DNA from: a virus
Length of the DNA stretch: 40,875 bases
Virus record (IMG/VR): IMGVR_UViG_3300036779_000170
Strand: one strand, 5' to 3'
Below the pieces are notes generated by a model. That model made no database searches. It saw only the letters and a list, made by a program, of their open reading frames with translations, and was not told where the DNA came from. This document shows, in pieces, positions 14,055 to 37,646 of the stretch (the stretch's first letter is position 1; each line of letters starts with the position of its first letter). Position numbers and translations under genes: made by a program.

Positions 14055-14312
14055 ATGCGACTCCCACTAAACACCGGGCAGGGCGAAGCTCTGCGCATTT
14101 TTCGGAATGATTGCCATAAATTGCGCTGTCGGCAGGACGATGCGGCAATAAAGCGCTCTCTTGAAGTATGGCGAAGCCTCGCCATGGCGGCCAGAACCAT
14201 TCGGGAAAATGTTCCACCCTGCCAGGAGCGCTCAACTGCATTTTCATTTCTCAGCGAGATCGGAAACCTGTGCAGCGAGGCGATTGTGGAGGAAGCGTCC
14301 AATGGTCAATGA
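14055..14312 (+). CDS. Possible small helical protein at the head of the recombination operon
   Basis: ATG within ORF 14049-14312. Overlaps the erf start by 11 nt. Modest third-position GC, so coding status is uncertain. Confidence 0.3.
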   Translation: MRLPLNTGQGEALRIFRNDCHKLRCRQDDAAIKRSLEVWRSLAMAARTIRENVPPCQERSTAFSFLSEIGNLCSEAIVEEASNGQ

Positions 14313-20676: not shown

Positions 20677-20700
20677 TTGCGATGCAAAGGAATAACGGAC

Positions 20701-22461
20701 ATGTTCGTCGAGTTCACAGCCAGCGAAGTCGCGGCCTACTGCCGCGTCCGGGTTCCCGGCCTCAAAAAGATCGGCGCCGAATGGCGCGGCCCCTGTCCGG
20801 TGCATGGCGGCAAAGACCCTAATTTTGCCGTGGATCCGCAGACCGGGATGGCCATGTGCCACAGCCGGTGCGGTCGGGGATTCGACATCATTTCGCTGGA
20901 AATGGCCCTCCGGCGGGTTGAGTTCGTACCCGCCAAACTCGAAGTCTTTCGCATAGTCGGCAGGCCTGAGCCGCAGTGGGAAGACCTCAGTTTTGAGGCC
21001 ACCTACGATTACACCGACGCCGACGGTAATCTGCTCTACCAGGTTGTGCGCAAACCCGGCAAGGTGTTCATGCAGCGCAGGTGGCTGGACGGCAGATGGT
21101 CGTGGGCCCTGGGCGACACACCGCGAGTTCCGTTTCGCCTGCCGGAATTACTGGCCTGCAAAACAGTAGTCGCGGTTGTCGAAGGCGAGAAGTGCGCAGT
21201 AAACATGGTCCGCGCCGGCTGGGTGGCAACTACAAATTCCGGCGGGGCTTGCAACTTCAAACCGGAACTGGTGCCGCATTTCGCCGGCAAGCACGTCGCC
21301 GTGTTCGGTGACAATGACGACAAAGGCAGGCAGCATGTCGACCTCGTGGCGAGGCTCCTCGCGCCAGTGGCGGCCAGTCTGAAGATTGTGGAGATTCCCG
21401 ACCTGCCGGAAAAGGGGGATGTATCTGACTTCCTGGCCCGGGGCGGTACCGGCCTCGATCTGCGCAACCTGTATCGCGCAGCGCCTGAGTGGACGCCTGA
21501 GGTGAAACCAGAGACTCCGCTGGTGCATGAGAACGACCGCTACCTCCGCACCTTCGGCGACGAACTGCGCGCCGCCGGCGGATTTGAAGGCTTCTGGAAA
21601 TCGCTGGACATCGAAGGCCTGCCTACTCCCTTTCCGCCGCTGACCCGCAAGCTGGGCGGAATGCGCAAAGGCGAGGTCTACATACTGGCGGCCCGCACCG
21701 GCCAGGGTAAGACTTCGCTGGTTTTGCAGTTCGCCGATGCCGCGCTGACCTCGCGCACCGGCGTTCTCTTGTTTTCGATGGAAATGGGACACCGTGACGC
21801 CTTCCAGCGCCTGGCGGCGCAGCGGGCCAGGGTGGATTTGTCGCACTTCCGGCATCTGCGGCGAACCGGTCTCGACTCCCCGCTGCTCTGGGAGATGACA
21901 ATGGCGCTGCGGGAGGCGACTGAGACTTACGCCCAGTCGTCTTTATTCGTTTCCACCAAGTCTGCGGTTACCCCGGAATTTCTGCATATCGAATCCATGC
22001 GCGTGCGGGAGCGCAGCCAGGTCGGTCTGGTGGTAGTCGACCACATGCAACTTATGGGCGGCGATCCGAAACTTCGATCCGAATACGAGAAGTTTACGGC
22101 AATTAGCCGAATTACCAAACAAATCGCAGTCAACCTCGATGTACCGCTCATCCTCGTAAGCCAGGTTAACCGCAGCAATGCGGAGCGCAGGGGAACTGAA
22201 CTGGAAATGACTGATCTTCGATCCTCGGGCGCCCTCGAAGAGGACGCCGCCGCCGTCCTGCTGCTCTATTACGACAAGGACGACGTGAAAGAAGCCGAGC
22301 GCGATCCCACCGGCGAACGCATAAAACGCGGCCCTATCAGTACGTGGTTAAAACTGGCCAAAAACCGCTATGGCTGCAGCGGCACTTACGAGAAGCTGGT
22401 GCACATGAAAGCAATTACGCGGTTCGATATGAGCCAGCAGGCTGCGGCGGCTCACGCCTGA
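20701..22461 (+). CDS. Bifunctional primase-helicase (CHC2 zinc finger, TOPRIM, DnaB-like ATPase)
   Basis: GPCPVHGGKDPNFAVDPQTGMAMCHSRC, VAVVEGEKC...FGDNDDKG, Walker A ARTGQGKTS, VVVDHMQLM. Confidence 0.85.
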   Translation: MFVEFTASEVAAYCRVRVPGLKKIGAEWRGPCPVHGGKDPNFAVDPQTGMAMCHSRCGRGFDIISLEMALRRVEFVPAKLEVFRIVGRPEPQWEDLSFEATYDYTDADGNLLYQVVRKPGKVFMQRRWLDGRWSWALGDTPRVPFRLPELLACKTVVAVVEGEKCAVNMVRAGWVATTNSGGACNFKPELVPHFAGKHVAVFGDNDDKGRQHVDLVARLLAPVAASLKIVEIPDLPEKGDVSDFLARGGTGLDLRNLYRAAPEWTPEVKPETPLVHENDRYLRTFGDELRAAGGFEGFWKSLDIEGLPTPFPPLTRKLGGMRKGEVYILAARTGQGKTSLVLQFADAALTSRTGVLLFSMEMGHRDAFQRLAAQRARVDLSHFRHLRRTGLDSPLLWEMTMALREATETYAQSSLFVSTKSAVTPEFLHIESMRVRERSQVGLVVVDHMQLMGGDPKLRSEYEKFTAISRITKQIAVNLDVPLILVSQVNRSNAERRGTELEMTDLRSSGALEEDAAAVLLLYYDKDDVKEAERDPTGERIKRGPISTWLKLAKNRYGCSGTYEKLVHMKAITRFDMSQQAAAAHA

Positions 22462-22766: not shown

Positions 22767-23033
22767 TTAACTGATCTCCACGTGGTACGCCGTCAGCGGG
22801 CGGTCTCCCTTGCCGTCCGGCCTGAGGCACCCCGTTGTCTGCCAATAGTAATTGACCGCTTCACGCGCACACGGGAACTGGCGCGCCTCAGCTGGATCGC
22901 AGGTTGTCACGAGGTGAACCCACGGCCTGCCGTCCGGATCGACGCCGCCGCGCGTCGGGTCGTATTCCTGAATAAATCTGCCGTCCAGTTTCGTGGCTAC
23001 GTTGTCACACCGGGAAAGAATTCGGATCGTCAT
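22767..23033 (-). CDS. Hypothetical protein, paralogue of 19966-20325
   Basis: MTIRILSRCDNVATKLDGRFIQEYDP...RPWVHLVTTCDPAEARQFPCAREAVNYY. Confidence 0.6.
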   Translation of the reverse strand: MTIRILSRCDNVATKLDGRFIQEYDPTRGGVDPDGRPWVHLVTTCDPAEARQFPCAREAVNYYWQTTGCLRPDGKGDRPLTAYHVEIS

Positions 23034-23292
23034 AGTGCGGAACCTCAATTTCGTATTCATCATCCGTAAGGCCGGTAACGCGCCCCGCTTTCAGATCCAC
23101 GTTCAGCGGAATAATGCCTGTAATAAAACCATCGCCGCTTCTGACAATACCTTCCAGCCCCAGTGCCACCGCCGCGCCGTTGGGACTCACTAAAATAACT
23201 TCGCCATAACACCATTCGTCATTCGTGCCCAACTTTCGCACGCGGACCCGTTCGCCCTTTATCAGCCCGCGTGGTTGCGCCTGATGAGGCAT
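23005..23292 (-). CDS. Hypothetical protein
   Basis: ORF track entry, in the co-oriented gene chain. Confidence 0.55.
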   Translation of the reverse strand: MPHQAQPRGLIKGERVRVRKLGTNDEWCYGEVILVSPNGAAVALGLEGIVRSGDGFITGIIPLNVDLKAGRVTGLTDDEYEIEVPHYDDPNSFPV

Positions 23293-23592
23293 TCAGTTTC
23301 GGTTCCGCCAATCGTTTGGCACGATGTCCTGCATTTCGTTTTTAACGGCGCTGTAGTCATCGGAGGTTGTACCGTCAGCCTGAATCCAGCCCGCGTGTTC
23401 CGCTTCCGGTATTTCCTTGAAACAGCAGAGGCAGATAATCAAAGCGCCGGGGTTGCGTTTCATGAAGGCTTGGCCGGACGGGGCCATCGCTACCTGGCGC
23501 GAGCAGCGGGAGCAGTTATGGGCATAGACCGTGCCGCGAGCAACAACGAGGGCATCAGCGGCGGGAGCGCAAACCAGTACTGGTGTTGTCAT
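23293..23592 (-). CDS. Cys-rich hypothetical protein
   Basis: ATGA overlap with the upstream gene. CSRCSRQ ... ICLCCF. Confidence 0.55.
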   Translation of the reverse strand: MTTPVLVCAPAADALVVARGTVYAHNCSRCSRQVAMAPSGQAFMKRNPGALIICLCCFKEIPEAEHAGWIQADGTTSDDYSAVKNEMQDIVPNDWRNRN

Positions 23593-23780
23593 TGCTTTTG
23601 CTCCCGCCTGCACAGGGCCACATGCCGCCGCATTTCGCGGGTCCCCAGCGTAACCCCGCAGAGCCGGCAGGCCAGCAGCACTTTAGGCCGCCCGCTCGCT
23701 TTACGTCTCGCCGCTACCCGGCGCCTCCCGATCTCCGAATAAAGCTGACTTGTCGGTACTTCGCTCAGATCGTTTTGCAT
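23589..23780 (-). CDS. Small basic zinc-ribbon protein
   Basis: RRRVAARRKASGRPKVLLACRLCG...HVALC. Confidence 0.5.
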   Translation of the reverse strand: MQNDLSEVPTSQLYSEIGRRRVAARRKASGRPKVLLACRLCGVTLGTREMRRHVALCRREQKQ

Positions 23781-23913
23781 TTTTAACTCCCCCTCCGAAT
23801 GCTTTCGTAATGCACGCTACGCAGGCGTACGGTTTGTAGTTCAGGGCCTCCAAAGGAATGACAGGTGCGAACCAGTCCGGCGGCTGCTCGCGCCCGCACA
23901 CCGGACAGGTCAT
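23701..23913 (-). CDS. Small zinc-ribbon protein (80-nt overlap with the next gene)
   Basis: MTCPVCGREQ...YACVAC. The tail after about residue 40 looks low quality. Confidence 0.45.
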   Translation of the reverse strand: MTCPVCGREQPPDWFAPVIPLEALNYKPYACVACITKAFGGGVKNAKRSERSTDKSALFGDREAPGSGET

Positions 23914-24110
23914 TCAGATTCCTCATAAGGCTTGTAATTCGGGTTGCCGATGTTTAAAGAGTTGGTGAGCTTGACCAGGGTACGAAACAGGTCGCGTTCG
24001 TCCTGTTTGCAGACCGTGCCCGCCGCGATCCCAAGCGCCATCATCAGCATGAGGTACTGATTCTTTGAGATCGTCAGCACGACGTTCTCACCCTGCTCGC
24101 GGTAACTCAC
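23910..24110 (-). CDS. Small hypothetical protein
   Basis: ATGA coupling at both ends. Confidence 0.5.
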   Translation of the reverse strand: MSYREQGENVVLTISKNQYLMLMMALGIAAGTVCKQDERDLFRTLVKLTNSLNIGNPNYKPYEESE

Positions 24111-24505
24111 AGCACCCCGGCCTCCCGCATCTCGCGCACTGTCGACTGGAAGCTAACCGTCGGTCTGGCCTGCGCCGGCGCGACCTGCTTCACAGCGCGC
24201 GCGCGGCGCGCTTTGCCCTTCTTGTCCCCCAGCCCGTAGGCGTTCGGGTCGAAGTAAGCGGTCAGCGGCGCGTCCCAGTTCTTGCGCCCGATATCGGTCG
24301 ACAGAAACTGCTCCCACGCCCGCCGGCCATCCTTTGTCAGCATGAACCCCCTGCCCGGTTTATAGGCGATCCAGCCGCGCACGAGCATACTGCGAAATGG
24401 CCGCTGGTCGTAGTGCTGCGCATAGTCGATGCTCATGGCATAAGCGGGGCCCTGGTCGGCAAAAGTTTTCAGCATTGGATAGCCGCGATTGGACAGGCTT
24501 ATCAT
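24107..24505 (-). CDS. Hypothetical protein (possible winged-helix)
   Basis: ORF track entry with ATGA coupling. SMLVRGWIAYKPGRGFMLTKDGRRAW. Confidence 0.55.
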   Translation of the reverse strand: MISLSNRGYPMLKTFADQGPAYAMSIDYAQHYDQRPFRSMLVRGWIAYKPGRGFMLTKDGRRAWEQFLSTDIGRKNWDAPLTAYFDPNAYGLGDKKGKARRARAVKQVAPAQARPTVSFQSTVREMREAGVL

Positions 24506-25041
24506 GCCTGCACCTCGGCAGCTTTTCGTGCACGGCGGGCCAGTTGCGCCGCATGGCTCGCGGGGTCAACTGGCTTGGCTTTCCCGCGACTCACGGCTAT
24601 GCGCCGGTTCATTTCCTTAACGCGCTCCTCGGGCGTCATCCGGCCCCAGTAGCTTTTTGACAGTTTTGATCTGGCTTCCTTCGGCATCCTGCGCATGCCG
24701 CCGGTCCCTGAGGCCTCCCGGAGCTTCCAGCGCCTGGCTATTTCCGCGCTGCGCTCTTCGGGAGTCATATTGCCCCAGAAATTATGGCCTCTGCCTGCGG
24801 CCCCGTTCTGCGCACCAGCCTCAATCCGCCGCGCCTCGGCAATTACCGCGCTTTCCTTTTTTTTCGGCCTGCCGACCGGTCTGTGCCCGTTGGGTACAAT
24901 GCCGCCGCACTGCGCCAGCAGGGCCTCCAGTTTGGCTATCTCAGCGTCCATGCCCGCTACTGCTACCTCACGCATCCGGCGCAGCCCGGGCAACGCCTGC
25001 GCCAAACCGATTGCCGCAAATTCCGCTAAAAGTCTGTCCAT
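24502..25041 (-). CDS. Basic protein with two W..MTPEER repeats
   Basis: FWGNMTPEERSAEIARRW and YWGRMTPEERVKEMNRR. First gene after the terminator/promoter gap. Confidence 0.6.
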   Translation of the reverse strand: MDRLLAEFAAIGLAQALPGLRRMREVAVAGMDAEIAKLEALLAQCGGIVPNGHRPVGRPKKKESAVIAEARRIEAGAQNGAAGRGHNFWGNMTPEERSAEIARRWKLREASGTGGMRRMPKEARSKLSKSYWGRMTPEERVKEMNRRIAVSRGKAKPVDPASHAAQLARRARKAAEVQA

Positions 25042-25130
25042 GTCGTGTCGTTATTCCCTTTCTCAAACAGCCGCTTTCCTTTCAGCGACATTAAAAGCAC
25101 AATATCACGTTTAAATGCATTAGAAAAGAG

Positions 25131-25172
25131 AAAAACCCCGGCAGGCCTATGGAGGAGCGCGCCGGGGTTTTT
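25131..25172. terminator. Bidirectional rho-independent terminator
   Basis: A5, then CCCCGGC (25136-25142) ... GCCGGGG (25161-25167), then T5. Confidence 0.7.
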
Positions 25173-25232
25173 AAGGAATAAACGAACTCCGGGGATGACA
25201 AGTCGCCCGGTACCGTTATTGTTGCACGTCTG

Positions 25233-25406
25233 CTACTCGTGTTTGCCCATCATTTCGTAGACCTTGCCGGTCAGAAGTTTGATATCAGCGCGCATCTCGC
25301 GGATATCGTCACGGATACCGGATATCTGAAACAGGTTGATTACCAGCGAGGCCAGTACTGCTGTGATCGGCAGGCCCACGGCGATATAAAGTTGCATGTC
25401 CGTCAT
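25233..25406 (-). CDS. 57-aa protein with an N-terminal TM helix (below the ORF-track cutoff)
   Basis: Manual translation: MTDMQLYIAVGLPITAVLASLVINLFQISGIRDDIREMRADIKLLTGKVYEMMGKHE. Confidence 0.5.
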   Translation of the reverse strand: MTDMQLYIAVGLPITAVLASLVINLFQISGIRDDIREMRADIKLLTGKVYEMMGKHE

Positions 25407-25416
25407 TTTGTCTCGC

Positions 25417-25614
25417 TCACTTTTGGCCCGCCTTCCACTCTTCCAGGCGCGCGATCTTCCCCTCGTGCGAGATCATGTATTGCACCAGCATGTCTACGTT
25501 TTTACCAATCGGGTCCAGCTTCGCGTCAATGTAGTACTTAAAAAATGCGATACCCAGCCCGAAAAGAGTCACCAGCAGGCCGGCCACCGATAAAACACCC
25601 TGATCTGTTGTCAT
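25417..25614 (-). CDS. Small protein with an N-terminal TM helix and a C-terminal coil
   Basis: VLSVAGLLVTLFGLGIAFF ... GKIARLEEWKAGQK. Confidence 0.6.
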   Translation of the reverse strand: MTTDQGVLSVAGLLVTLFGLGIAFFKYYIDAKLDPIGKNVDMLVQYMISHEGKIARLEEWKAGQK

Positions 25615-25638
25615 TCGTTTATCCTCTGTTCCATTCTG

Positions 25639-26367
25639 TCACTGTAGCCCCTCAGAGCCATTCAGGCCTTCTGTCTGCGCGCCCAGTATATTCGCCACGC
25701 CCTGATGGCTCCAGAGGCCGCCGCGCCGCGTCCTGTGGCCTGCCTCGTTCAGTAACCGCGCGATGGCAGGCAGTGACTCGCCCGCTTTGCGGTACGCCTT
25801 CGCCAGATTGAGCAATGCCTGCTCTGCCGGGTCAGGTGTTAGCAGGTGGCGGACGCCCTGCTTTCGGTCCTCTGCCGTGCGCCTGGGCGCCTTGTAGCCG
25901 TAAAGGGCCGTTCCAACCCGAAAGCCCTTTTCCTTGATATGGCCCAGGGCGTCCCGGGTTCGCTCCCCGATTGCTTCCCGTTCCCACTGGCTAACCGTCA
26001 TCATGATACTGATCACCATGCGGCCTGAGGCTGTGGAAGTGTTGAGCGCGTCCGCGACCGACACCAGCGACACTTTGCGCTTGTCAAACAAGTCGAGAAG
26101 CGTCCACAGATCGCGTACAGAGCGCGTGAGACGGTCCAATTTAGCCACGATGACCATAGACACCTCGCGGGCTTCAATCAGTCCTACAAGGCGCTGCAGG
26201 CCGTCCCGTTCCATGCAGGAACCAGAGCCCACCTCGGATATCACCTCCACGTCAGGCAAATCCAGCACTCCGGCCTGCTGCCGGATCTTAACGGCCTGCG
26301 CATCCAGCGATACACCGTTCGTGCCCTGTTCGTTGGTCGAAACGCGGGCGTAGCCGAAGGTTTTCAT
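25639..26367 (-). CDS. Short serine recombinase (resolvase catalytic domain plus a partial recombinase domain)
   Basis: MKTFGYARVSTNEQ, VAKLDRLTRS, SQWEREAIGERT, then GYKAP...IARLLNEAGHRTRRGGLWSHQGV. Only 242 aa, with no zinc-ribbon or coiled-coil part. Confidence 0.8.
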   Translation of the reverse strand: MKTFGYARVSTNEQGTNGVSLDAQAVKIRQQAGVLDLPDVEVISEVGSGSCMERDGLQRLVGLIEAREVSMVIVAKLDRLTRSVRDLWTLLDLFDKRKVSLVSVADALNTSTASGRMVISIMMTVSQWEREAIGERTRDALGHIKEKGFRVGTALYGYKAPRRTAEDRKQGVRHLLTPDPAEQALLNLAKAYRKAGESLPAIARLLNEAGHRTRRGGLWSHQGVANILGAQTEGLNGSEGLQ

Positions 26368-26669
26368 TGCGCGGGGCGCTCCCGTTCCAGTTTTTCTATG
26401 CGTTCCCGTAATTTATTGACTTCGGTCGAGAGCCCGCTTAGAGAATTGTCGGATTGCTCATGCCAGCGTGATTGACGCGCCAGCAATTCCATAGTGGTGT
26501 TGGTGTTGCTGTCCACTCGCTTTAAGCGGCGGTCTATTTCGTCGATACGCCAGGTCAGCCGCTCCTCCACTCCTTTCAGTTCGCTGTGAGTGGTAGCGGT
26601 CTCACCTGCGATCAGCGCTGCAATCCGTTCCTCCATTGCCCGTAAATACTCTTTTGTTTCGTTGTCCAT
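26364..26669 (-). CDS. Soluble coiled-coil protein
   Basis: Heptad-rich; ends LRERIEKLERERPAQ. Confidence 0.6.
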   Translation of the reverse strand: MDNETKEYLRAMEERIAALIAGETATTHSELKGVEERLTWRIDEIDRRLKRVDSNTNTTMELLARQSRWHEQSDNSLSGLSTEVNKLRERIEKLERERPAQ

Positions 26670-26687
26670 GTCGTTTGTCCCTTTTCC

Positions 26688-27173
26688 TTATTCCGCTTCT
26701 CTGCGCGCCACGCGGCACGCGCCGCACGCGCATAACCACGCGCGCCCGTTGGCCCTGTCGAGATCCTGATGGGCACTGGCCACGCGTGAATACCACCGGC
26801 CCTGCAGAATCGCCGGCAAAGGCTCTGCGACGTGAGAATTATCGGCGGTGGAAGGCCCCCATGTAACACGCGTGGACGGTGCCGCAGCGTCCGGCATAAG
26901 CCGGTCACTTCCCTTATCCCGTGTTGGACCGCCAGTAACAGATTGCACTTCCTCCACGGCAACCGACGCGGCGCCGCCGTGGTGTTTGATGTGCGACGGC
27001 GAAAACGACCGCATCCGCTCGGTAGCCCGCCGGCGTTCCTCCGGCGTGTATCTCTGCCACCTGGTAGCGGCTTCTGAGCTGCGCGCGTCGAAGTTCAGTT
27101 TGTCCCATTTGCTGCGCGCGGCTTTAATCCGCGCCGCGCGTACTTCCTCGGGTGTTTTACGCGGTCTCGGCAT
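26688..27173 (-). CDS. Basic protein with one W..YTPEER motif
   Basis: TRWQRYTPEERRRATERMR. TAATG coupling. Confidence 0.55.
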   Translation of the reverse strand: MPRPRKTPEEVRAARIKAARSKWDKLNFDARSSEAATRWQRYTPEERRRATERMRSFSPSHIKHHGGAASVAVEEVQSVTGGPTRDKGSDRLMPDAAAPSTRVTWGPSTADNSHVAEPLPAILQGRWYSRVASAHQDLDRANGRAWLCACGACRVARREAE

Positions 27174-27385
27174 TATTGCTTTGTCTCCAGGCGTTCGATA
27201 CGCTGCTCATGTATTTCCGCGATTCGTGCGAGTCCCCGTATATTCTCCGCGTCCTTTTCCGAGTTTTTACTCAGCCGGCGAATGCCGCGATTGTGTTTCG
27301 TGGCCAGCTTCTGCAGATCGAGAATATCCCGGTGCGCCAATTCCAGGTTCATAGTCAGCGCCTCCAGCCGTTCGTCTATCGTCAT
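27173..27385 (-). CDS. Soluble coiled-coil protein
   Basis: Ends IHEQRIERLETKQ. Confidence 0.6.
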   Translation of the reverse strand: MTIDERLEALTMNLELAHRDILDLQKLATKHNRGIRRLSKNSEKDAENIRGLARIAEIHEQRIERLETKQ

Positions 27386-27685
27386 TTACCGGCCCTCCTT
27401 TTTTCCGTTCGAGTGCTCCCGCGTGATTGCCCGGATCAACCCGTCAAGATTCGCCTCCAGGCGTTTCATGCGTTCGTCCGATGACGTGATATAGCGGGAG
27501 GCGGAAGCGGCCAGACCTTCAATGGCCGCTTCCGTGCGCAGGTGAGCCGCTTTCAGTTCGTCGCGCGCCGCCGTCATCTGGTCGTGTGACTTCCCGACGA
27601 TTTCGGCCAGCGCATTGATATTGCGATCCGTTCTGGTTTGCGCCTCGATAAGGCCGGCGAACATGGCTTTGATTTCGGGGTCCAT
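27386..27685 (-). CDS. Soluble coiled-coil protein
   Basis: Helical, with SDERMKRLEANLDG. Confidence 0.6.
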   Translation of the reverse strand: MDPEIKAMFAGLIEAQTRTDRNINALAEIVGKSHDQMTAARDELKAAHLRTEAAIEGLAASASRYITSSDERMKRLEANLDGLIRAITREHSNGKKEGR

Positions 27686-28036
27686 TTATGCTTCCACCTC
27701 CTCGGCTTCCTCTTCGGCCTTTTCCACGTCTTCGATGAAATGCTCCGCGATTTCGTGCCAGTCGACCTCTCCCAGCGCCGCGTTGAGCAGGTCGGTGAAA
27801 AGTGAGGCTCCATCCCCGATTGGATTCATTTCTTCGATCCAGTTTTCCAGCGCCTGGGAAAGATCCAATACCGCGCGTTCCTCGCGGGTAAAGTTCCGAT
27901 CCGCTTCGGCGCCGTCCCAGGCATCCTGCGCCATTTCGCAGCGCTGGGAATACGAGCCCTGGTCGTTATCGATCCAGAGCGCTACATTCCACGTTTCGTA
28001 ATTCGCCCAGCCGTTGTATTTTTTGTCGTTTGCCAT
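27686..28036 (-). CDS. Strongly acidic protein (YNGWANYETWNVALWIDND family)
   Basis: Conserved-looking W-rich N-terminus and an acidic tail EDVEKAEEEAEEVEA. Confidence 0.65.
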   Translation of the reverse strand: MANDKKYNGWANYETWNVALWIDNDQGSYSQRCEMAQDAWDGAEADRNFTREERAVLDLSQALENWIEEMNPIGDGASLFTDLLNAALGEVDWHEIAEHFIEDVEKAEEEAEEVEA

Positions 28037-28099
28037 GTTCGTCTCTTCCTCTTCAGTACCGGATTAACCGGTATACGCCAGCCGTCTGGCGTTTCGGAG

Positions 28100-28534
28100 T
28101 TATGCCGCTATCTTTTCCCGTACCTCCGAGAGCACACTGTCGGACGGGGCGCCGAGTTGCCACGCTACGCCGTCATAAGAGCTCTCCGCATGCCTGAACG
28201 CGCGTACGCAGCATTCGGCAAAGGTAGGCATTCCCGTTACAGCGGACATATGAACGCGGCCCGGGCCTGCAATCTCGTATCCCCAGTTTCCGTGCCTGAA
28301 CTGGCAGACAAGGACCGTTCCGTTTGCGCAGCCGATTACGCATTGCTGGTAATTTTCGACCTGCGTCACAGCTGCTTTAATCTGCTCCTCCACCATGGGG
28401 CGCAGTTTGGCTTTCGCTGTGGCCAGACTGCCGGCGTATACCGATGCGTTCATGCCTGCGACATAGGCGAACCCAGTTTCGTCGTTCGTCCTTCGCACTT
28501 CAAAGGCGATATTTAATTTCGTTTCGTTTGTCAT
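28100..28534 (-). CDS. Hypothetical protein
   Basis: ORF track entry. Two intergenic hairpins follow it (28037-28099). Confidence 0.6.
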   Translation of the reverse strand: MTNETKLNIAFEVRRTNDETGFAYVAGMNASVYAGSLATAKAKLRPMVEEQIKAAVTQVENYQQCVIGCANGTVLVCQFRHGNWGYEIAGPGRVHMSAVTGMPTFAECCVRAFRHAESSYDGVAWQLGAPSDSVLSEVREKIAA

Positions 28535-28567
28535 GTTCGTTCGTTTCCCTTATCGTTTGTTTCCGTT

Positions 28568-28825
28568 CTACTTAATCCGCCGCATCGGTGTGATATTGGC
28601 GTCCGGCTGGAAATACCCGCTGTCAACGCGTTTCTGAAACGTGCTGACCAACTCCGCCTGAGCTGCCTCCAGCGTCGTATCCATGCGGATCTTTCCCAAC
28701 GATCCGCCGCAATCCGAAGCCTTATACCAGGCTCCAACTCCGTCTGTATAAAGGTCTACCCAATGTTTGCCGCTTTTGGATTCCCAACGCGCTATCGGGT
28801 CTAATGTGAATGTCGCTGTCTGCAT
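28568..28825 (-). CDS. Hypothetical protein, first gene of the minus-strand accessory operon
   Basis: ORF track entry. The overlapping ORF 28531-28737 was judged spurious. Confidence 0.6.
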   Translation of the reverse strand: MQTATFTLDPIARWESKSGKHWVDLYTDGVGAWYKASDCGGSLGKIRMDTTLEAAQAELVSTFQKRVDSGYFQPDANITPMRRIK

Positions 28826-28957: not shown

Positions 28958-29644
28958 ATGGCTGGCTCTGTCGAAACTGTTTCTTCCCTTAAACGCCTCG
29001 ATTTCCTCTTGCCCGCTGAAGAGAAAGCAATCTGGGATTCCATCTACGCCGGCCTGTCAGTGAAACAAACAGCCGTTAAACTCGGCTTCACCTTCGCCAC
29101 TCTCGAAGCATGGTTCTACGATCCAAAGCGCTTACCATTGCTTAATCGTGCAAGAGCCAGCCTCGCTTCCCAGATGGCCCACGAAACTATTGCCATTGCG
29201 GACTCCGGACACGGGATTCCAGCGTTGAATGGCCGCGAGACCGCGAATTCCACGGCGCCAGAAACATTTCCCGACGCAGCGCGCGACAAACTGCGCATTC
29301 AGGCAAGGCAATGGCTTGCAAGTAAATGGGACAAAGACACTTACGCGTCAACACCGCAAACCGTGGTCAACATTGACGCGAAGTCACTACATATAGATAG
29401 TCTCCGACGTAGTTCGCAGGATCTGCAAACAACCGCACGGTTGAATGAAGGCGCATTCCTGCCGCCGGTGCAAGTAACTGATTCTACGGCACTTCTAAAC
29501 GCAGGGCCGGCTGTAATTAGCCCCCCGGCATCCCCTTCCACCACGCCGTCTGGCGACGGCGGCACTCCTTCTCGTGGCAAAGCGTCGCAGAGAAATGCGT
29601 CTACTACAGACGACGTATCTGAGACCGCAGAAGGTGCTGACTAA
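28958..29644 (+). CDS. HTH protein resembling a small terminase subunit
   Basis: AGLSVKQTAVKLGFTFATLEAWFYD ... DAARDKLRIQARQWLASKWDKDTY matches a TerS family as I recall it. The C-terminal third is low complexity. Confidence 0.5.
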   Translation: MAGSVETVSSLKRLDFLLPAEEKAIWDSIYAGLSVKQTAVKLGFTFATLEAWFYDPKRLPLLNRARASLASQMAHETIAIADSGHGIPALNGRETANSTAPETFPDAARDKLRIQARQWLASKWDKDTYASTPQTVVNIDAKSLHIDSLRRSSQDLQTTARLNEGAFLPPVQVTDSTALLNAGPAVISPPASPSTTPSGDGGTPSRGKASQRNASTTDDVSETAEGAD

Positions 29645-30228
29645 GGGCAGGGGGTTAACTGTAAGGGAAGGTTTACGAGGCCCCGCGTCATATGACGCGG
29701 TAGGCAGGGGAACTGGGCCAGGGGAATCTTCTGTTACAGAAGAAGTGGAAAAAAAAAAAAAAAAAAAAATACAAAAGCAAGAGGCTTTAACTAATACAGA
29801 GGATGTAACTGTCTTGATTTCCTGGTGTTGAATGAAACGGGTTCAATTGGGGAGGGGGGGGCTTACCGCCCCCCCCCTCTGTACCACCGTGAAAGAAACT
29901 CTGTAACAGAACACACTTCTACTAAAGAGGGGACTCGAAAACAGTCCCGAATGTGGTTCGACTTGAACTACCGGATCCCGGCGGCTAAACGGGCCGCCGT
30001 CCCCCGGCTAACGCGCTCAAGTCAGGCCAGTGTTAGTCGAGCTAACACCGCTGTATGCTGCAACCGGTACCGCCTTGGAGGTTATCCCAGAGTATGGGAA
30101 CTTATCCAACCGAACCCGTAACCCTTGCGGGGTTTCAATTAAGTCATTGCAGGCCAGCACACGGCCTTTCGGGGACGCGCCGCGCTCCGGACGCTGGGGC
30201 ACTGGGCCATCACGCCGGGTCGCGGAAT
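29645..30228. other. ORF-free island dense in hairpins and homopolymers (structured RNA, pac/cos or origin candidate)
   Basis: 18-bp palindrome 29683-29700, 17-bp palindrome 29727-29743, A21 at 29749-29769, G8/C9 hairpin 29852-29879, and hairpins at 29930-48, 29953-71, 29979-99, 30030-48 and 30120-34. Confidence 0.6.
29749..29769 (+). repeat. Homopolymer A21
   Basis: Counted directly across lines 29741-29770. Confidence 0.95.
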
Positions 30229-30453
30229 TCATACAAACAAGCCGTCTTTCATAATCACCTTGCACTTGCCGGCTGGACCCTTCATCGGCCCTGTGCCACG
30301 AAGCGCTCTGTTGCGTGCGCTCCATGCCGGGGTTTCCAGAACATAGTCATGACCAATATGCGATTCGGCTCGCATTGGATGGACAGAGTGGCTACTCTTC
30401 GGATTACGGGCTTTACGGCGACGTGATCTACGGCTCATAGACCGACTTACCAC
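30229..30453 (-). CDS. Possible small basic protein (uncertain)
   Basis: GTG 30453 or ATG 30438 (MSRRSRRRKARNPKSS...). Mixed third-position GC. Confidence 0.3.
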   Translation of the reverse strand: MVSRSMSRRSRRRKARNPKSSHSVHPMRAESHIGHDYVLETPAWSARNRALRGTGPMKGPAGKCKVIMKDGLFV

Positions 30454-30454
30454 T

Positions 30455-30727
30455 TCATTGACCGCTTGCGGCGGCCAAACTTTTCTCGCGCGCGGCCTTC
30501 AAATGCCGGCTTCGAGCCGGTCGCGCGGCGAAACATTCTTCGTGCCACGAGCGCCGAGACTCCCATTCCCAGATCATTATGTTGCCGGCGTAAATTGGCG
30601 CCTTGCACAAATGACAGGGGGCGAACCAGCGGGCCTTCAACCGCTGCGCCGTTTTCGGAATGTTGCAGAGCGCGGGCGGGAAGGCTGAAGTGCGGATCGA
30701 ATCGGTCTCGGGCGAGATCACAGGCAC
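30455..30727 (-). CDS. Small Cys/His protein
   Basis: High GC3. APCHLCKAPIYAGNIMIWEWESRRSWHEEC. Confidence 0.5.
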   Translation of the reverse strand: MPVISPETDSIRTSAFPPALCNIPKTAQRLKARWFAPCHLCKAPIYAGNIMIWEWESRRSWHEECFAARPARSRHLKAAREKSLAAASGQ

Positions 30728-30810
30728 GTTCCTTTATGTTGTAAGGTGAAACGCGGCAGGATGCAAGCGAAATCTTTCAGGGTAACCATAAAGGAATGAA
30801 TAAGTTATCC

Positions 30811-30868
30811 TTCAGGCCGCTGGGTTCCACTCAGGCCTCTTGTATGGCCTGAAAATAGTTTGTAAGAT
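30811..30868 (+). promoter_or_regulatory. Operator/promoter-like motif cluster
   Basis: TTCAGGCC (30811), TCCACTCAGGCC (30826-30837), TTGTAT-GGCCTGA-N10-TAAGAT (30840-30868). TCAGGCC-N8-GGCCTGA forms a 7-8-7 palindrome. Confidence 0.35.
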
Positions 30869-30870
30869 TT

Positions 30871-31158
30871 ATGAACGGAACCGAAAGGGAGAAACGAACT
30901 TTGGACACATCGGTAATCACGACTCTCATCAGCACCGGCGGGGCGGTCATTGTCGGCCTGGGCGGGATGTGGATCTCAACCAATCAGATCGGAAAGCGCA
31001 TCGATTCACTGGAGCGGTCTTTCGAAAAGCGGATGGATTCGCTGGAGCGCCGCTTCGAGCGGCTGGAAGACGAATTCCGGACTTTCAAAGAACTGGTCAC
31101 CGGCAAACTCACCGCGCTGGACTCGGACATCGCGAAACTGATGGATGGGCGGGGATGA
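30871..31158 (+). CDS. Small protein with an N-terminal TM helix and a C-terminal coiled coil
   Basis: VITTLISTGGAVIVGLGGMWI, then IDSLERSFEKRMDSLERRFERLEDEF...VTGKL. Confidence 0.6.
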   Translation: MNGTEREKRTLDTSVITTLISTGGAVIVGLGGMWISTNQIGKRIDSLERSFEKRMDSLERRFERLEDEFRTFKELVTGKLTALDSDIAKLMDGRG

Positions 31159-31391
31159 TGATCGAACCACCCACGGCGGATTGGGTGGCGCGGCTGCACC
31201 TCGAAATGGCCGCTGCTACCGAACTGGTATGGAAAATCCAGAACGCGCTCACCGAGGCCGGCGACCTTACGCCGGAAATCGTGGATCTTGCCCGCAGGCT
31301 GGAGTACCGGGCAGGCGTCGTGCGGGGGTTCGTTGCGCGCTGGGAAGGGTTGAAGGCGGCAACGCGGGAAGGACTAAAGCCAGGTGAGTGA
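31155..31391 (+). CDS. Small hypothetical protein
   Basis: ATGA overlap. MMIEPPTADWVARLHLEMAAATELVWK... Confidence 0.5.
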   Translation: MMIEPPTADWVARLHLEMAAATELVWKIQNALTEAGDLTPEIVDLARRLEYRAGVVRGFVARWEGLKAATREGLKPGE

Positions 31392-32269
31392 CAAATTTGA
31401 CATACTGCATTGATTGCCGGCGACTTACCGAGGAACTGGAGCAGGCGAATGCGGCGCTGAAGGACATCAGTAATGCTGCAATTGGATACGGGGAAATTGT
31501 TCCGTTTCTTATCCAACGAATGCTGGAACTGCACGCCGAAGCCATTGCAGCCGCGAAGGACGAGACGTTGAGTTTTGAGAGCGCGGCGCAGAGAATTGCG
31601 GGGCTCAGTGAAGAACTGAAACGGGCGCGTAAATGGATACTGGACACGGAGAATGAAGAGGCTTCGGTGTGCCCTGAAGATGTAGGATTTGTTGAGTTTA
31701 TTCATACGTTGCAGGCAGAATTGAAGCAGACGAAGGCAGACCACGACACCCTTCGGACTCTTTCCAATGTGACCCTTAAAGGTGAATTAGAGGCCTTGGC
31801 CGAACTCCGCGAATCCGAAGCACAACTAGCCGAGGCTCGCCGCCAGCATAGCGTGCTCTTGATTTCATGGGAAAAATTGAAAGCTACTCGGAACGCACAG
31901 GCAGTTCAGTTGGCCGAGTCCCGCAGCCGCATAACAGAACTCGAAGAAGCTCTCCGCAAGGCTGATGAGCGTGACAGTCCTGTCGGGCTGATGCTTCAGT
32001 TGGCCGAGGCGCTGAAGGCGCTAGAAGAAATACGTGATGGAAAGCCAGGTTTCCCTAGTTGGCTTGCTGACGTTGCTCTCTCCCGCCTCGCCCCCGACCA
32101 CGCCAACAAGCTGGCGGAAGCGGTGCGGGAAGTTATATCCAGCGAACGTGAATGGGATCGTCTTACAGCAATTCCTGAAGCGATGGCTCTTGACATCTTT
32201 AAAGCCCATGATAAATGGAAAAACGCAACGCGGGCGCTCGCCGCGCTGTGGGGGAGTCGATTGCCATGA
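31388..32269 (+). CDS. Long coiled-coil protein
   Basis: GTGA overlap. 293 aa, heptad-rich. Confidence 0.6.
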   Translation: MTNLTYCIDCRRLTEELEQANAALKDISNAAIGYGEIVPFLIQRMLELHAEAIAAAKDETLSFESAAQRIAGLSEELKRARKWILDTENEEASVCPEDVGFVEFIHTLQAELKQTKADHDTLRTLSNVTLKGELEALAELRESEAQLAEARRQHSVLLISWEKLKATRNAQAVQLAESRSRITELEEALRKADERDSPVGLMLQLAEALKALEEIRDGKPGFPSWLADVALSRLAPDHANKLAEAVREVISSEREWDRLTAIPEAMALDIFKAHDKWKNATRALAALWGSRLP

Positions 32270-32547
32270 AAAAACAAAAACCGGTATTCAGAGACGGGAT
32301 GGTGCACGTGCGCAGGGCAATGTGCGACACCTGCATCTTCCGCCCGGGGAATCTGATGGACCTTGAGCCGGGGCGCGTGGAGTGGTTGGTGAAGGGAGCG
32401 ACCGAGGCCGAGTCGTGCATTCCGTGCCACAAGACGACATACGGCGAGGACCCGCGCGGCGAAGCGGTCTGTCGTGGATTTTACGAGAAGCACGCGACAG
32501 TGCCGCTGCGGCTGGCGGCGACCATGGGGAAGGTTCGCTTTCAGTGA
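32266..32547 (+). CDS. Cys-rich protein
   Basis: MKKQKPVFRDG...CDTCIFR...CIPCH...CRG. ATGA overlap. Confidence 0.55.
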   Translation: MKKQKPVFRDGMVHVRRAMCDTCIFRPGNLMDLEPGRVEWLVKGATEAESCIPCHKTTYGEDPRGEAVCRGFYEKHATVPLRLAATMGKVRFQ

Positions 32548-32756
32548 CCCTGCCACCTGGAACCCGCGTTGAAAAGATCAACTCGGAACCAGACGACACT
32601 CACCAGGACGGAGCGCCGGCCACCGTGCTGCGCCGGTTTCCGGAAGACCCGGTAAATGATATGGGCCGCGAGTTCGGCTATTTCGTCCACTGGGACGACT
32701 TGCCGGATCTTCAGGTATTCATCGCCGCGCACCGTATCCGCCCGCTGAGGATTTAA
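32544..32756 (+). CDS. Small hypothetical protein
   Basis: GTGA overlap. VTLPPGTRVEKINSEPDD... Confidence 0.45.
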   Translation: MTLPPGTRVEKINSEPDDTHQDGAPATVLRRFPEDPVNDMGREFGYFVHWDDLPDLQVFIAAHRIRPLRI

Positions 32757-36183: not shown

Positions 36184-37593
36184 TTAAACCACCTGCAACC
36201 GGCTGACGAGTTTCCGCGACCACGAATTCCCGGCGGCAGTCCCGTAAAGCGCCGTCGAAGAGTCGGACGCCAGCGTCAAAATAAAGCTGTCTCCCACGTC
36301 AGGGGAACGCAAACCCCGTTTCTTCATGTCCTCTTTGGATTCGATTCGCAGTTTGCCGGTTTTCTCCTGGAACCCGTAACGGATCGTCGTAAGCTCGCCG
36401 ATCAACCGGTCGTCCGAGGGAATCAGGCAGTCCCGCTTTTCGAACCACGACTTGGCTTTGAACCAGAGTTCCGCCCGCAGATTCATAAAGGTATTCCCGA
36501 CTGCGGGAGATTCCGAGACATTGATGCCGCGCGCCGGCAGGCCGAGTTGCGCGAGCCGGTCGCAGGCCCCGGCGCCGAGACCAATTGAGTCCACAAGGAT
36601 TTCCACGGGGCGCCGCTCGCTGGGCGTGGTTTCCCATTCCGCCATCACGAGGCCCACTGTCTGCATCAGATCTTTGCCGTGCCAGGTGCGAACTGGTTCG
36701 GTTACCGAATTTCCCTTACGTTTGCATAATGCCGAACAGTCGCTGCCGAAGCGGGCGATGTCGAGACCCCATACAATGCTCGCGAACTGGGAAGGCGCCA
36801 CATCCCGCGACACGGCGGTTTGCACCAGTTCAATCGGTATAACGGTGTCCTCGTCCACCCGGGGGAATTCCCCGAGAATGCGGACCCGGAAGTAATTGGA
36901 ATCCTCGCCGTAGGACTCCAGCGCATCCTTAATATAGTCGCGCGACACGCGCGGCGAATCGACACCCGAGACGTGCATCGTGTACCAGCGGGCTTTGTTC
37001 TTGTGGTGGGTGTCGTAAAAGAAGCCGGAGGTGCGAACCGGATTGCCCAGCAAAACCGTCTGCGCGCTGTGTCCCGCCATGGAACTGGATGCGGCTTCGA
37101 AGACCTGCTCGGGAATGCCGGAGGCCTCGTCAGCGATTAAGAGGACGAAGTCGGAGTGCTTGCCGGCCAGCGCCTCCGGCGCCTCGGGTCGCGAGGTGCC
37201 GGCGGTGAGAAAGCAGTCCTGCGGCACCGACGCCAGTTCAATGGAACTGGATTTGATATTCAGCAATTCCTTCAGTTGCGGCGGCAGTTCGTTAATCCAG
37301 TGCACGATCTCGCTGAAAAGCGCGTCGAACAACTGGGTGGCCGACTGCGAAGTGATCGCAACTTTACAGCGGTAGCGGCACAGCAAAAACCAGATCGAAG
37401 CCCACGACGCGGCGGTCGACTTGCCGACGCGGTGGCCGGACCGGACGGAAATACGGCGCTCGCCGCGCGCCAGCGCGTTCAGAAATTCTTCCTGCCATTT
37501 ATCGGGTTCTGCGCCCCAGACTTCCCGCACCATGCGCACCGGATCGGTGCGGTAAAGCAACTGAAACTGGTCGAAGGGGTTTTCCTGCGGCAT
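36184..37593 (-). CDS. terL: Terminase large subunit
   Basis: Walker A SGHRVGKST, Walker B LLIADEA, and a C-terminal nuclease-like half (VWGLDIARFGSD, DSFILTLA). Confidence 0.85.
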   Translation of the reverse strand: MPQENPFDQFQLLYRTDPVRMVREVWGAEPDKWQEEFLNALARGERRISVRSGHRVGKSTAASWASIWFLLCRYRCKVAITSQSATQLFDALFSEIVHWINELPPQLKELLNIKSSSIELASVPQDCFLTAGTSRPEAPEALAGKHSDFVLLIADEASGIPEQVFEAASSSMAGHSAQTVLLGNPVRTSGFFYDTHHKNKARWYTMHVSGVDSPRVSRDYIKDALESYGEDSNYFRVRILGEFPRVDEDTVIPIELVQTAVSRDVAPSQFASIVWGLDIARFGSDCSALCKRKGNSVTEPVRTWHGKDLMQTVGLVMAEWETTPSERRPVEILVDSIGLGAGACDRLAQLGLPARGINVSESPAVGNTFMNLRAELWFKAKSWFEKRDCLIPSDDRLIGELTTIRYGFQEKTGKLRIESKEDMKKRGLRSPDVGDSFILTLASDSSTALYGTAAGNSWSRKLVSRLQVV

Positions 37594-37604: not shown

Positions 37605-37635
37605 ATTACCACAGTTTTTTAAAATCTGTGGTAAT
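37605..37635. promoter_or_regulatory. Perfect 10-bp inverted repeat in the TerL/portal divergent intergenic region
   Basis: ATTACCACAG (37605-14), an 11-nt A/T spacer, then CTGTGGTAAT (37626-35). A third partial copy GTAACCACA lies at 37636-44. Confidence 0.5.
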
Positions 37636-37646
37636 GTAACCACAAG

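Follow-up and report, generated by a model that had tools for sequence, protein, structure and literature searches.

Genome ends in described phages

Among cultured phages, the nearest counterparts to the locus described here are Sinorhizobium phage phiM5 (MF074189), a LUZ24-like podovirus, and the bruynogheviruses LUZ24 and PaP3. In phiM5, to which 357-bp direct terminal repeats (DTRs) are assigned by the GenBank annotation alone, a terS-like ORF (phrog_2538, E 2.8e-6) straddles the DTR start. The element GGAGAC9GCCCTCCCCTCGGGCTGGGGG, which the annotated DTR contains, has the terS stop 14 nt before it and the genome end 43 nt beyond it; TerL begins 36 nt downstream of the DTR. In LUZ24 and PaP3, 1.6-1.9 kb without CDS adjoin terS and contain the genome ends. 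The LUZ24 layout consists of terS, ~860 nt of non-coding DNA, a 184-bp DTR with many C5/G5 runs, 836 nt of non-coding DNA with early promoters, and small early genes. In PaP3, ~1.6 kb without CDS and then tRNA genes come before terS, which lies at the record start.

In T7 and T3 the left end is long and untranslated and carries early promoters. Both DTRs are short, with a C5-ATA-G5 palindrome in T7 and a C8 run in T3, and their conserved boundary separates GTGTCCCT (...CCCT) from ATCTGTTA(CAG). A hairpin or palindrome near the T7 junction was reportedly proposed by Chung, Nardone and Hinkle in 1990 as an intermediate in end duplication. To our knowledge, hardly any uncultivated phage has known packaging signals and genome ends, and the proper way to open, annotate and engineer its genome depends on both. 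In T5, the injection-stop (iss) region is large, untranslated and terminus-proximal, with repeats, inverted repeats, palindromes and DnaA boxes (10.1101/866236).

Features of the island downstream of terS

We analysed a 40,875-nt virus sequence (IMG/VR record IMGVR_UViG_3300036779_000170), referred to below as the window, which closes into a circle through a 127-bp overlap of the assembly. Its terS-like product matches PF20901, the family of the LUZ24 TerS, at 28.5 bits (cut-off 27) and phrog_1482 at E 1.9e-7, and homologues of this product reach 7e-20 on PF20901. The gene is followed by an island without ORFs, in which we distinguish three zones (Table 1). An earlier note had described an ORF-free stretch ending at 30228; no convincing ORF is indeed present, but the stretch runs to 30900, twice the reported length. 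Codon-usage scores were at most 0.02 in all six frames of 29645-30900, the gene caller placed no gene within the island in an independent assembly (L002), and neither among 5.8 billion nor among 1.8 billion proteins was there a homologue of the two longest island ORFs.

Table 1. Positions of the island, its elements and selected genes in the window
Feature	Position	Strand	Remarks
terS-like gene (small terminase, Sf6_terminase family)	28958-29644	+	Lone + strand gene after a - strand block
ORF-free island	29645-30900		1256 nt (1.26 kb); directly after the terS-like gene; three zones
Zone 1, terS-proximal DNA element	29645-29912	none	TGTAAC-type sites, palindromes, A21, G8/C9 hairpin
Site B TTAACTGTAAG	29655-29665	+	TGTAAG core immediately past the terS stop
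18-bp perfect palindrome CCGCGTCATATGACGCGG	29683-29700	none	DNA hairpin energy -8.3 kcal/mol, z -4.3
Site A TCTTCTGTTACAGAAGA	29727-29743	none	8-bp inverted repeat round a single central base
A21 homopolymer	29749-29769	+	Right flank AAAAGCAAGAG (29773-83) conserved
Site C ATGTAACTGT	29803-29812	+	Contig L112 (SRR11836439) begins exactly here
GAG8-CTTACCGC-C9TC hairpin	29852-29879	none	Window's form of the family poly-C/G element downstream of terS
Site D TCTGTAACAGA	29900-29910	none	Right arm of the 12-bp inverted repeat
Zone 2	29913-30728	none	~815 nt, no ORF; short hairpins concentrated at 29930-30048 and 30115-31
Zone 3, probable promoter/operator and leader of the small-gene operon	30729-30900	+	Conserved
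Operon of five small genes	30901-32756	+	Gene calls in L002; downstream of the island
Primase-helicase gene	20677-22461
Small serine recombinase gene	25639-26367

The A21 tract, the G8/C9 hairpin, both palindromes and the short hairpins lie where the earlier note had placed them, except that two of its sites are shifted by one nucleotide: TTAACTGTAAG starts at 29655 rather than 29654, and GTAACTGT occupies 29805-29812 rather than starting at 29806. The features exceed chance by far: the longest A/T run in 300 first-order Markov simulations was 12, against 21 observed. A G-run/C-run pair within 40 nt arose in none of the 300 simulations, and G8 and C9 are the sole G/C runs of at least 7 in the whole 40.9 kb. 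The density of perfect-stem hairpins reaches 8 per kb in the island compared with 2.7 per kb genome-wide, and the 600-nt windows at 29401-29801 hold the genome maximum (7 hairpins, against a mean of 1.6 and sd of 1.3).

The island, including A21, is identical in the independent Logan assembly SRR11832737 (L002); its features are real and not an assembly artefact. Long homopolymers are prone to slippage, contig L003 stops, with a base error, 9 nt past A21, and A21 of the window corresponds to A23 in the relative L004, as might be expected of a phase-variable tract or a sequencing or assembly artefact. Against this, A21 has exactly the same length and flanks in three assemblies, and the tract with its right flank AAAAGCAAGAG is kept in L004, whose TerS is diverged (59% identical). 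The tract also lies outside any ORF or recognizable promoter spacer, and the circular assembly closes independently of it. Phase variation, one of the earlier suggestions for this tract, and artefact are thus extremely improbable explanations.

The four TGTAAC/TGTAAG sites of zone 1 (B, A, C and D) are spaced 70-100 bp apart, and 3 of the 9 TGTAAC copies in the whole window fall within 29733-29907. The core of site A, TTCTGTTACAGA (29729-40), forms a 12-nt inverted repeat with 29900-11 that is 100% complementary, with the arms 159 nt apart. Zone 1 is partly conserved in the relatives L004, L005 and L006. Site A is conserved in L005 and L006, site B has the counterpart GGTAACTGTAGGG in L005, and the homologue of site C in L004 is ATGTTACAGATAG.

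The length without coding potential (1.26 kb), the genome's densest cluster of short hairpins and the fold z of -4.66 for 29645-29912 could also indicate a large structured non-coding RNA transcribed from the island. However, the strong z of zone 1 comes from its perfect palindromes, whose folding is the same on either strand, as is usual for DNA sites. The short hairpins are confirmed at 29930-48, 29979-99, 30030-48 and 30115-31, but the train that the earlier note saw in them barely beats shuffles when folded as a single RNA (z -1.8 on the + strand and -1.7 on the - strand for 29912-30230), and z is again -1.8 for 30230-30870. A search of Rfam 15, including GOLLD, ROOL, HEARO and tmRNA, gave no match at gathering scores, and even at E<=10 the sole match was a 24-nt chance match to the G/C hairpin. 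ARAGORN found no tRNA or tmRNA gene. No convincing promoter was recognized upstream and no homologue was available for a covariation test. We therefore consider a large structured RNA very unlikely.

The terS-linked module in related loci

A non-coding module directly after terS is present in the window and in at least 16 related loci, in which the downstream genes vary. The next gene in the relatives codes for TerL, a methyltransferase or a resolvase, or consists of small ORFs on either strand, and the module ends at its start codon. Within 450 nt downstream of terS, 16 of the 22 related loci carry a G/C homopolymer of at least 7; 20 of 28 such runs fall in 3.4% of the sequence. In the window, L001 and phiM5, the terS-downstream runs are the only ones of this length in the whole genome. 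The polarity of the hairpin differs, with the G-run preceding the C-run in the window and the C-run preceding the G-run in the relatives. Distant relatives carry A8-9 runs that reach into the start of the next ORF and may be unrelated to A21.

Searches with the island itself were negative: blastn against 50,697 phage records gave no match, and the palindrome-plus-poly-A DNA pattern had no match in IMG/VR. No close TerS relatives were found in IMG/VR and JGI metagenome contigs, and a scan of GTDB genomes returned one MAG contig, which was unhelpful. The pattern of poly-A plus AAAAGCAAGAG had 53 matches in metagenomes, all of low complexity and without TerS or island similarity. We also discarded the 1.3-kb annotation gap of MW202879, which is under-annotated coding sequence, and MW202496 and MW202711, which have a different small terminase.

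A candidate packaging and genome-end control region

Based on sequence comparison, we tentatively favor reading the island as the terminase-linked, terminus-proximal non-coding region of a phiM5/LUZ24-like podovirus, acting as DNA and not as a structured RNA, with a probability that we put somewhat below even. This reading is favored because the module is linked to terS whatever gene comes next, because the poly-C/G element is conserved downstream of terS and lies inside the annotated DTR of phiM5, and because ORF-free terminal regions adjoin terS in LUZ24 and PaP3. It is also favored because contig boundaries fall at TGTWAC sites (see below) and because neither coding capacity nor a known RNA finds support. 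The packaging site that the earlier note had listed among its candidates is thus the one that the comparative evidence favors.

We infer from this that TerS encoded next to zone 1 may recognize replicated phage DNA there, and that the TerL nuclease may make the end-forming cuts within it. Zone 1 would then correspond to the concatemer junction and to the edge of a short terminal repeat such as those of phiM5, LUZ24 and T7. The TGTAAC-type inverted repeats (B, A, C and D) would serve as protein-binding or cutting sites, and the A21 tract, being rigid or easily melted, and the G8/C9 run pair, as an extrudable hairpin, might position the formation of ends or prime it. Zones 2 and 3 would form an untranslated leader past the terminus, ending in a promoter/operator for small early-type genes; in this they can be likened to the ORF-free left ends of LUZ24, PaP3 and T7 (0.8-1.6 kb).

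Similarity to phiM5 extends to TerL (52% identical, E 1e-162) and to the related portal and capsid, but the two loci differ in several respects. A21, the TGTAAC palindromes and the 1.2-kb gene-free stretch are all missing from phiM5, and the C-run there precedes the G-run. The terminal reading is weakened because the TerL gene of the window is 6.5 kb from the island on the opposite strand, whereas the module abuts TerL in phiM5 and several relatives. It is weakened as well because the hairpin polarity is reversed relative to the relatives, because the circular assembly reads through the island, and because the phiM5 terS-like ORF shows no detectable homology to the TerS family of the window by hhalign. 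In addition, the A21-23 tract has no known counterpart in characterized terminal repeats: LUZ24 and PaP3 have no long A-run on the equivalent strand, with T10 present in LUZ24. Unlike in the window, terS in LUZ24 and PaP3 is transcribed away from the terminus and tRNA genes lie in the region, and LUZ24 TerL is not similar to that of the window.

Compared with T7 and T3, the terminase and capsid lineages of the window are unrelated and the T7 CCTAAAG repeat arrays are absent. Their DTR boundary has the 10-mer TCTGTTACAG in common with site A; with ~0.07 such matches expected by chance, this is suggestive only. T5 is also an unrelated phage, in which the iss region lies inside 10-kb terminal repeats, and nothing in the window points to two-step injection.

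Should the island serve only for packaging and as a leader, its biology would be ordinary and just its form unusual. The comparison suggests a simple, searchable packaging or terminal marker for a metagenomic family of phiM5/LUZ24-like podoviruses: a hairpin with a unique G/C homopolymer, lying at most a few hundred bases downstream of an Sf6-type terS. Through one cultured phage, this marker is tied to an annotated terminal repeat.

Contig boundaries and possible DNA rearrangement

Four contig boundaries, produced by two assemblers, coincide exactly with TGTWAC sites. For L005 and L006 the contig end is the inner edge of site A, for L004 it is the homologue of site C, and L112 begins at site C. 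The extended motif TGTWAYAG occurs once each in L004, L005 and L006, always in the last 12 nt. These boundaries suggest real DNA ends or site-specific rearrangement. Terminally redundant ends are not expected to break a de Bruijn graph, so non-redundant ends or recombination would account for the boundaries better than a DTR would. L003 crosses site A unbroken.

The TGTWAC sites may be targets of programmed DNA breakage or rejoining, which we regard as distinctly unlikely. In one version, a recombinase would flip or swap a cassette, namely a shufflon-like or invertible segment with A21 and G8/C9 beside terS, possibly through the small serine recombinase; in the other, terminase would create non-redundant ends by cutting at any one of several palindromic sites that lie close together. 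Both versions would account for contigs from two assemblers that start or stop exactly at the sites. Either one, if true, would be a new way for a podovirus to tie the formation of its genome ends, or its early transcription, to a DNA switch. The 21-23-nt poly-A tract and the palindromic sites at which assemblies break reproducibly may mark either real ends or such a switch.

The more specific proposal, that a serine recombinase inverts the 159-bp segment carrying A21 and G8/C9 or joins alternative flanks, and so switches transcription or packaging from a shufflon-like non-coding cassette, is quite unlikely. Like invertons of the Mpi and Hin type, the window has short inverted repeats (29729-40 and 29900-11) bounding a segment of less than 200 bp and a small serine recombinase in cis, the gene for which adjoins the terS module in relatives. 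The contig ends at the inner edge of the repeat and the second-assembler start at site C are what would be expected when two junctions coexist in a sample. However, a single orientation and no inverted junction are seen in all three assemblies spanning the region, L003 passes site A without a break, and no promoter was recognized inside the segment. The recombinase matches the Mpi invertase family weakly (E 2.4e-9); its best matches are the XisF, Ccr and TP901-type catalytic domains and not Hin/Gin, and these matches do not place it in the Hin or Mpi family in particular. Moreover, since the sites are nearly palindromic, calling them inverted rests on one central base. As regards other types of ends, a protelomerase with hairpin telomeres was considered and dropped, there being no Pfam match for the large unassigned ORFs scanned.

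Comparison with replication origins

In several distant relatives the module resembles an origin, which weakens the packaging reading. In nine distant loci it contains DnaA boxes (2.2 per kb versus 0.17 per kb elsewhere), in five the IHF consensus AATCAAnnnnTTA, and in three loci 3-5 iterons of 11 nt. In addition, homologues of the first gene downstream of the island are immediately preceded, in L043-45, by a gap of 750 nt that is rich in iterons and by a gene for a RepA_C initiator. The island of the window could accordingly be an origin in which inverted initiator sites (TCTGTWACAGA at 29730 and 29900, plus half-sites) surround A21 as an unwinding element flanked by the perfect 12-bp inverted repeat, with the primase-helicase loaded there. 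Yet the island has no DnaA box (TTATCCACA) within one mismatch, no IHF consensus (WATCAANNNNTTR) and no direct iterons of three or more copies. No initiator gene was recognized beside it, and GC skew in the window follows gene orientation only. The DnaA boxes are absent from L001, L007, L015, phiM5 and C72C1 and thus are specific to a subclade of the distant relatives. They also parallel those of the T5 iss region, for which a different role has been proposed (10.1101/866236). An origin in the window is unlikely on this evidence.

Zones 2 and 3 and the downstream operon

No homologue of zone 2 was found anywhere searched, and its structure is weak. The conservation of zone 3 with the start of L042 (70.6% identical), its motif in common with another operon-upstream region, and the relatives' modules ending at the next start codon would all suit a plain regulatory spacer, made up of the terS terminator region, a promoter with leader for the small-gene operon and, for the rest, functionless, decayed DNA. 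But no canonical terminator follows terS: neither the G8/C9 hairpin nor either palindrome is followed by a T-run on either strand, and terminator scan sites do not exceed those in shuffles. A spacer would also leave unexplained the family-wide poly-C/G element, the A21-23 tract kept across the TerS divergence (59% identity) and the contig boundaries bound to sites, and we hold it to be rather improbable. Repeats D3 and D10 had hinted at a 490-nt tandem duplication inside the island, but the diagonal k-mer count lends it no support.

Repeats of the form TTCAGGCC / TCAGGCCTCTT occur in zone 3, together with a hairpin (30831-52), a putative sigma70-like promoter read by eye (TTGTAT at 30840 and TAAGAT at 30868, spaced by 17) and the Shine-Dalgarno sequence GAAAGGGAG at 30883-91. 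The 85-aa product of the downstream operon has 84 homologues. Of the right-hand contigs reached through this protein, L042 and L112 alone were informative; P0013 and P0049, reached in the same way, lie in plasmid-like or chromosomal contexts that are unrelated. The motif that zone 3 has in common with another region is the block TCCACTCAGGCC, which also occurs in the intergenic region 13815-13855.

Genome organization around the island

The first and last 127 bases of the window are identical (1-127 and 40749-40875), which is the assembler k-mer overlap, so that the genome closes into a circle of 40,748 bp with an arbitrary start inside the scaffold/capsid region. The phage is of podovirus type. 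Its terS is a solitary plus-strand gene lying 3' of the minus-strand block 23005-28825, and its product scored 28.5 bits against PF20901 (cut-off 27), on which its homologues score far better, and E 1.9e-7 against phrog_1482. These profile matches make it a weak but genuine predicted Sf6-type small terminase.

Genes, zones and sequence elements of the window
Feature	Coordinates	Strand	Remarks
Major head protein	323-1351		SU10/LUZ24-like family
ERF and YqaJ recombination genes	14161-16132
Primase-helicase	20677-22461
Small serine recombinase	25639-26367	-	242 aa; in the minus-strand block
terS	28958-29644	+	Sf6-type small terminase predicted by PF20901 and phrog_1482
Zone 1	29645-29912		sites B, A, C and D, 18-bp palindrome, A21, G8/C9 hairpin
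Site B	29655-29665		TTAACTGTAAG
Site A	29727-29743		TCTTCTGTTACAGAAGA
A21 tract	29749-29769
Site C	29803-29812		ATGTAACTGT
G8/C9 hairpin	29852-29879
Site D	29900-29910		TCTGTAACAGA
Zone 2	29913-30728
Zone 3	30729-30900		70.6% identity to the start of L042
TerL	36184-37593	-
Portal	37647-39878	+	SU10/LUZ24-like family

The catalytic domain of the 242-aa recombinase best matches the large serine recombinases XisF, Ccr and TP901-1, and the protein is without the large C-terminal domain of such enzymes. In MW202879 and in contigs L015-L020 a resolvase gene also adjoins the terS module. The first gene past the island (30901-31158) encodes an 85-aa product with weak matches to HSBP1 and DUF2730 and with 84 homologues, some in bacterial chromosomal contexts and others just 3' of a RepA_C initiator and an iteron-rich gap (L043-45).

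Reality, extent and anatomy of the island

All features listed in the earlier note were found in the window sequence, two sites being off by 1 nt. The island is free of genes as proposed, over a longer span than reported: the gene caller placed no genes in 29645-30900, codon-usage scores there are ≤0.02 in all six frames, and its two longest ORFs have no homologues among 5.8 or 1.8 billion proteins. The longest A/T run in Markov simulations was 12, against 21 observed; no simulation placed a G-run and a C-run ≤40 nt apart, and the genome holds no G/C run of ≥7 besides G8 and C9. Perfect-stem hairpins are three times as dense in the island as genome-wide, with the genome maximum in 600-nt windows across its left end, and three of the window's nine TGTAAC copies fall inside 175 nt. 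A perfect 12-bp inverted repeat (TTCTGTTACAGA / TCTGTAACAGAA) encloses 159 nt containing A21 and the G8/C9 hairpin. Zone 1 also carries three CAGGGG(A/G) repeats.

The features are not an artefact: the independent Logan assembly L002 (SRR11832737) is identical to the window throughout the island, and L004, a contig of a close relative (TerS identity 59%), keeps an A23 followed by the same AAAAGCAAGAG. Phase variation or artefact is the least credible account of the region, hardly worth entertaining. Zone 1 is alignable with two further close relatives, L005 and L006, through site A inclusive, and with L004 over the A-run and its right flank.

Zone 2 has no homologue in any sequence fetched, and none of the relatives extends across it. 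Zone 3 resembles a contig from the close relatives' metagenome (L042) and carries TTGTAT-17-TAAGAT and a Shine-Dalgarno sequence ahead of the TTG start at 30901; the simplest reading is that it is the promoter/operator of the small-gene operon. That the island is a plain regulatory spacer seems quite improbable. A second ORF-free stretch (13748-14161, 413 nt) separates the structural genes from the ERF/YqaJ recombination-replication operon. Its TTRTCCTT(A)CAGKCC / TCCACTCAGGCC block recurs in zone 3 (30800-30840) and in L042, and is therefore probably a common promoter/operator. The stretch includes the GGACTCGTAAAAGTCT hairpin (13964) to which the earlier note likened one of the island's hairpins.

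A large structured RNA had also been proposed, and it finds no positive support. Rfam gave no match in the island even at E≤10, barring one chance match, 24 nt long, that hit the G/C hairpin, and there is no tRNA or tmRNA. The folding z of zone 1 (-4.66) arises from its perfect palindromes, for which the two strands fold alike; outside zone 1, z is -1.8 and -1.7 (plus and minus strands of 29912-30230) and -1.8 (30230-30870). A structured non-coding RNA is very unlikely.

A terS-linked module in relatives

TerS homologues were found on at least 40 contigs, most of which have a non-coding module of 200-450 nt directly 3' of terS. The gene beyond it varies (TerL, methyltransferase, resolvase or small ORFs on either strand), and the one universal component of the module is a G/C homopolymer, usually C7-9 then G4-6. 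Such a run lies ≤450 nt 3' of terS in 16 of 22 loci, and 20 of 28 runs are concentrated in 3.4% of the sequence. The poly-C/G element is thus conserved and linked to terS; as a family-wide marker downstream of this gene it appears to be undescribed, as does the expanded A21-23 tract.

The module of one subclade also holds TTAACATAAT, DnaA boxes at 2.2 per kb (0.17 per kb elsewhere), an IHF consensus, iterons of 11 nt and, where the next ORF starts, a run of A8-9. In L025, L026, L028, L030, L031, L033, L034 and L035, TTAACATAAT belongs to a conserved non-coding module that occupies the first 300-450 nt after terS. This module also has an IHF consensus (AATCAAnnnnTTA), DnaA boxes (two or three, perfect or nearly so), GAC8GGTCGGCGCGGCGGCGGGG, 11-nt iterons (0-5 copies), CCCCATAATC and an A8 run that overlaps the next ORF's start. 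By its motif content, the module of these distant relatives resembles an origin joined to a packaging region. This content and the inverted sites on both sides of A21 would suit a replication origin in the window too, but DnaA and IHF elements of the subclade type are absent from it, and we consider an origin unlikely.

Contig boundaries at TGTWAC sites

Assembly discontinuities coincide with TGTWAC sites. All four close-relative TerS contigs (JGI 3300036785) end 9-130 nt 3' of terS: L005 ends in CTGTTATAGA at the inner edge of the inverted-repeat arm (equivalent to window position 29740), L006 in CTGTAACAGAAG at the same site, and L004 in ATGTTACAGATAG at the homologue of site C. TGTWAYAG occurs once in each of these three, always in the last 12 nt. 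In a second data set, built with another assembler (Logan, SRR11836439), the contig to the right, L112, begins with ATGTAACTGTC at 29803, in site C. The one to the left, L003, stops at 29778, and its final 31-mer is exactly G, A21 and 9 nt with one base error. Since the JGI contigs never end in A's, poly-A alone does not explain their ends; relatives with A8 runs only were assembled straight through in ten samples. Four of the six boundaries lie on a site (p about 0.01, an estimate conditional on the boundary falling within zone 1). A de Bruijn graph should not be broken by terminally redundant ends, whereas breaks would arise at non-redundant ends (with a 5' overhang filled in) or where recombinant junctions coexist. 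Palindromic sites at which assemblies break also appear to be undescribed. A recombination or inversion target would agree with these boundaries, the perfect inverted repeat and the nearby serine recombinase, but only one orientation was observed and the recombinase shows no specific likeness to Hin or Mpi, making such a target rather improbable.

Comparison with phages of known or annotated ends

The CHARACTERISED phages compared were phiM5, C72C1, LUZ24, PaP3, T7 and T3. The TerL of Sinorhizobium phage phiM5 (L051, MF074189) is 52% identical to that of the window (E 1e-162) and begins 36 nt past a 357-bp direct terminal repeat, taken from the deposited annotation alone. The 'hypothetical' ORF 1.2, which straddles the repeat start, is terS-like by phrog_2538 (E 2.8e-6), and the phiM5 terS thus appears to be unannotated (ORFs 1.1/1.2 have the coordinates 43581-43949 and 23-301). 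The genome's sole C9 run, in GGAGAC9GCCCTCCCCTCGGGCTGGGGG, sits 14 nt past the ORF 1.2 stop and 43 nt short of the right genome end; the counterpart of the poly-C/G element thus lies in the phiM5 repeat. C72C1 has the same order: terS, TTACATAATGG, C7..G5, C9 and the ATG of TerL.

ORF-free terminal regions comparable to the island exist in LUZ24 and PaP3. LUZ24, whose TerS belongs to the same Pfam family as the window's, has terS, about 860 nt of non-coding sequence, a 184-bp direct terminal repeat full of C5/G5 runs, 836 non-coding nt with early promoters and then small early genes; PaP3 has about 1.6 kb without CDS, and tRNA genes, ahead of terS at the record start. The T7 and T3 repeats hold C5ATAG5 or C8, the C5/C8 run being close to the left end of each, and in T7 (140-175) and T3 (215-245) the junction of GTGTCCCT and ATCTGTTA(CAG) falls exactly at the right boundary of the repeat. 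The T7 boundary 10-mer TCTGTTACAG also occurs in site A; because chance alone would give about 0.07 such matches (an estimate), this sequence match is a lead, not proof.

A possible packaging element

We tentatively read zone 1 as a DNA-level packaging element, a terS-linked region of recognition and end formation, and zones 2-3 as untranslated leader and promoter downstream of the terminus. TerS would bind the TGTAAC sites, the end-forming cuts would fall within zone 1, and A21 and the hairpin may act structurally. The packaging site named in the earlier note gains from the terS linkage, the conserved poly-C/G element and its phiM5 counterpart; against it, no genome end was seen, the window's TerL gene lies far off on the opposite strand, the G8/C9 hairpin has reversed polarity relative to the relatives, and a run of A21-23 is not known from characterised repeats. 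An origin, a recombination or inversion target and a regulatory spacer are each compatible with the packaging reading. The region is quite possibly the terminal/packaging non-coding region of a phiM5/LUZ24-like podovirus.

Other inverted repeats of the genome

The divergent TerL and portal genes are separated by a 53-nt gap with a perfect inverted repeat, ATTACCACAG-N11-CTGTGGTAAT (37608-37640), directly followed by TGTAAC; the repeat is likely a late-gene operator. None of the three longest perfect hairpins of the genome (11-12-bp stems; 27502-27534, 37778-37806 and 38979-39007) falls in the island, and the portal gene contains two of them.
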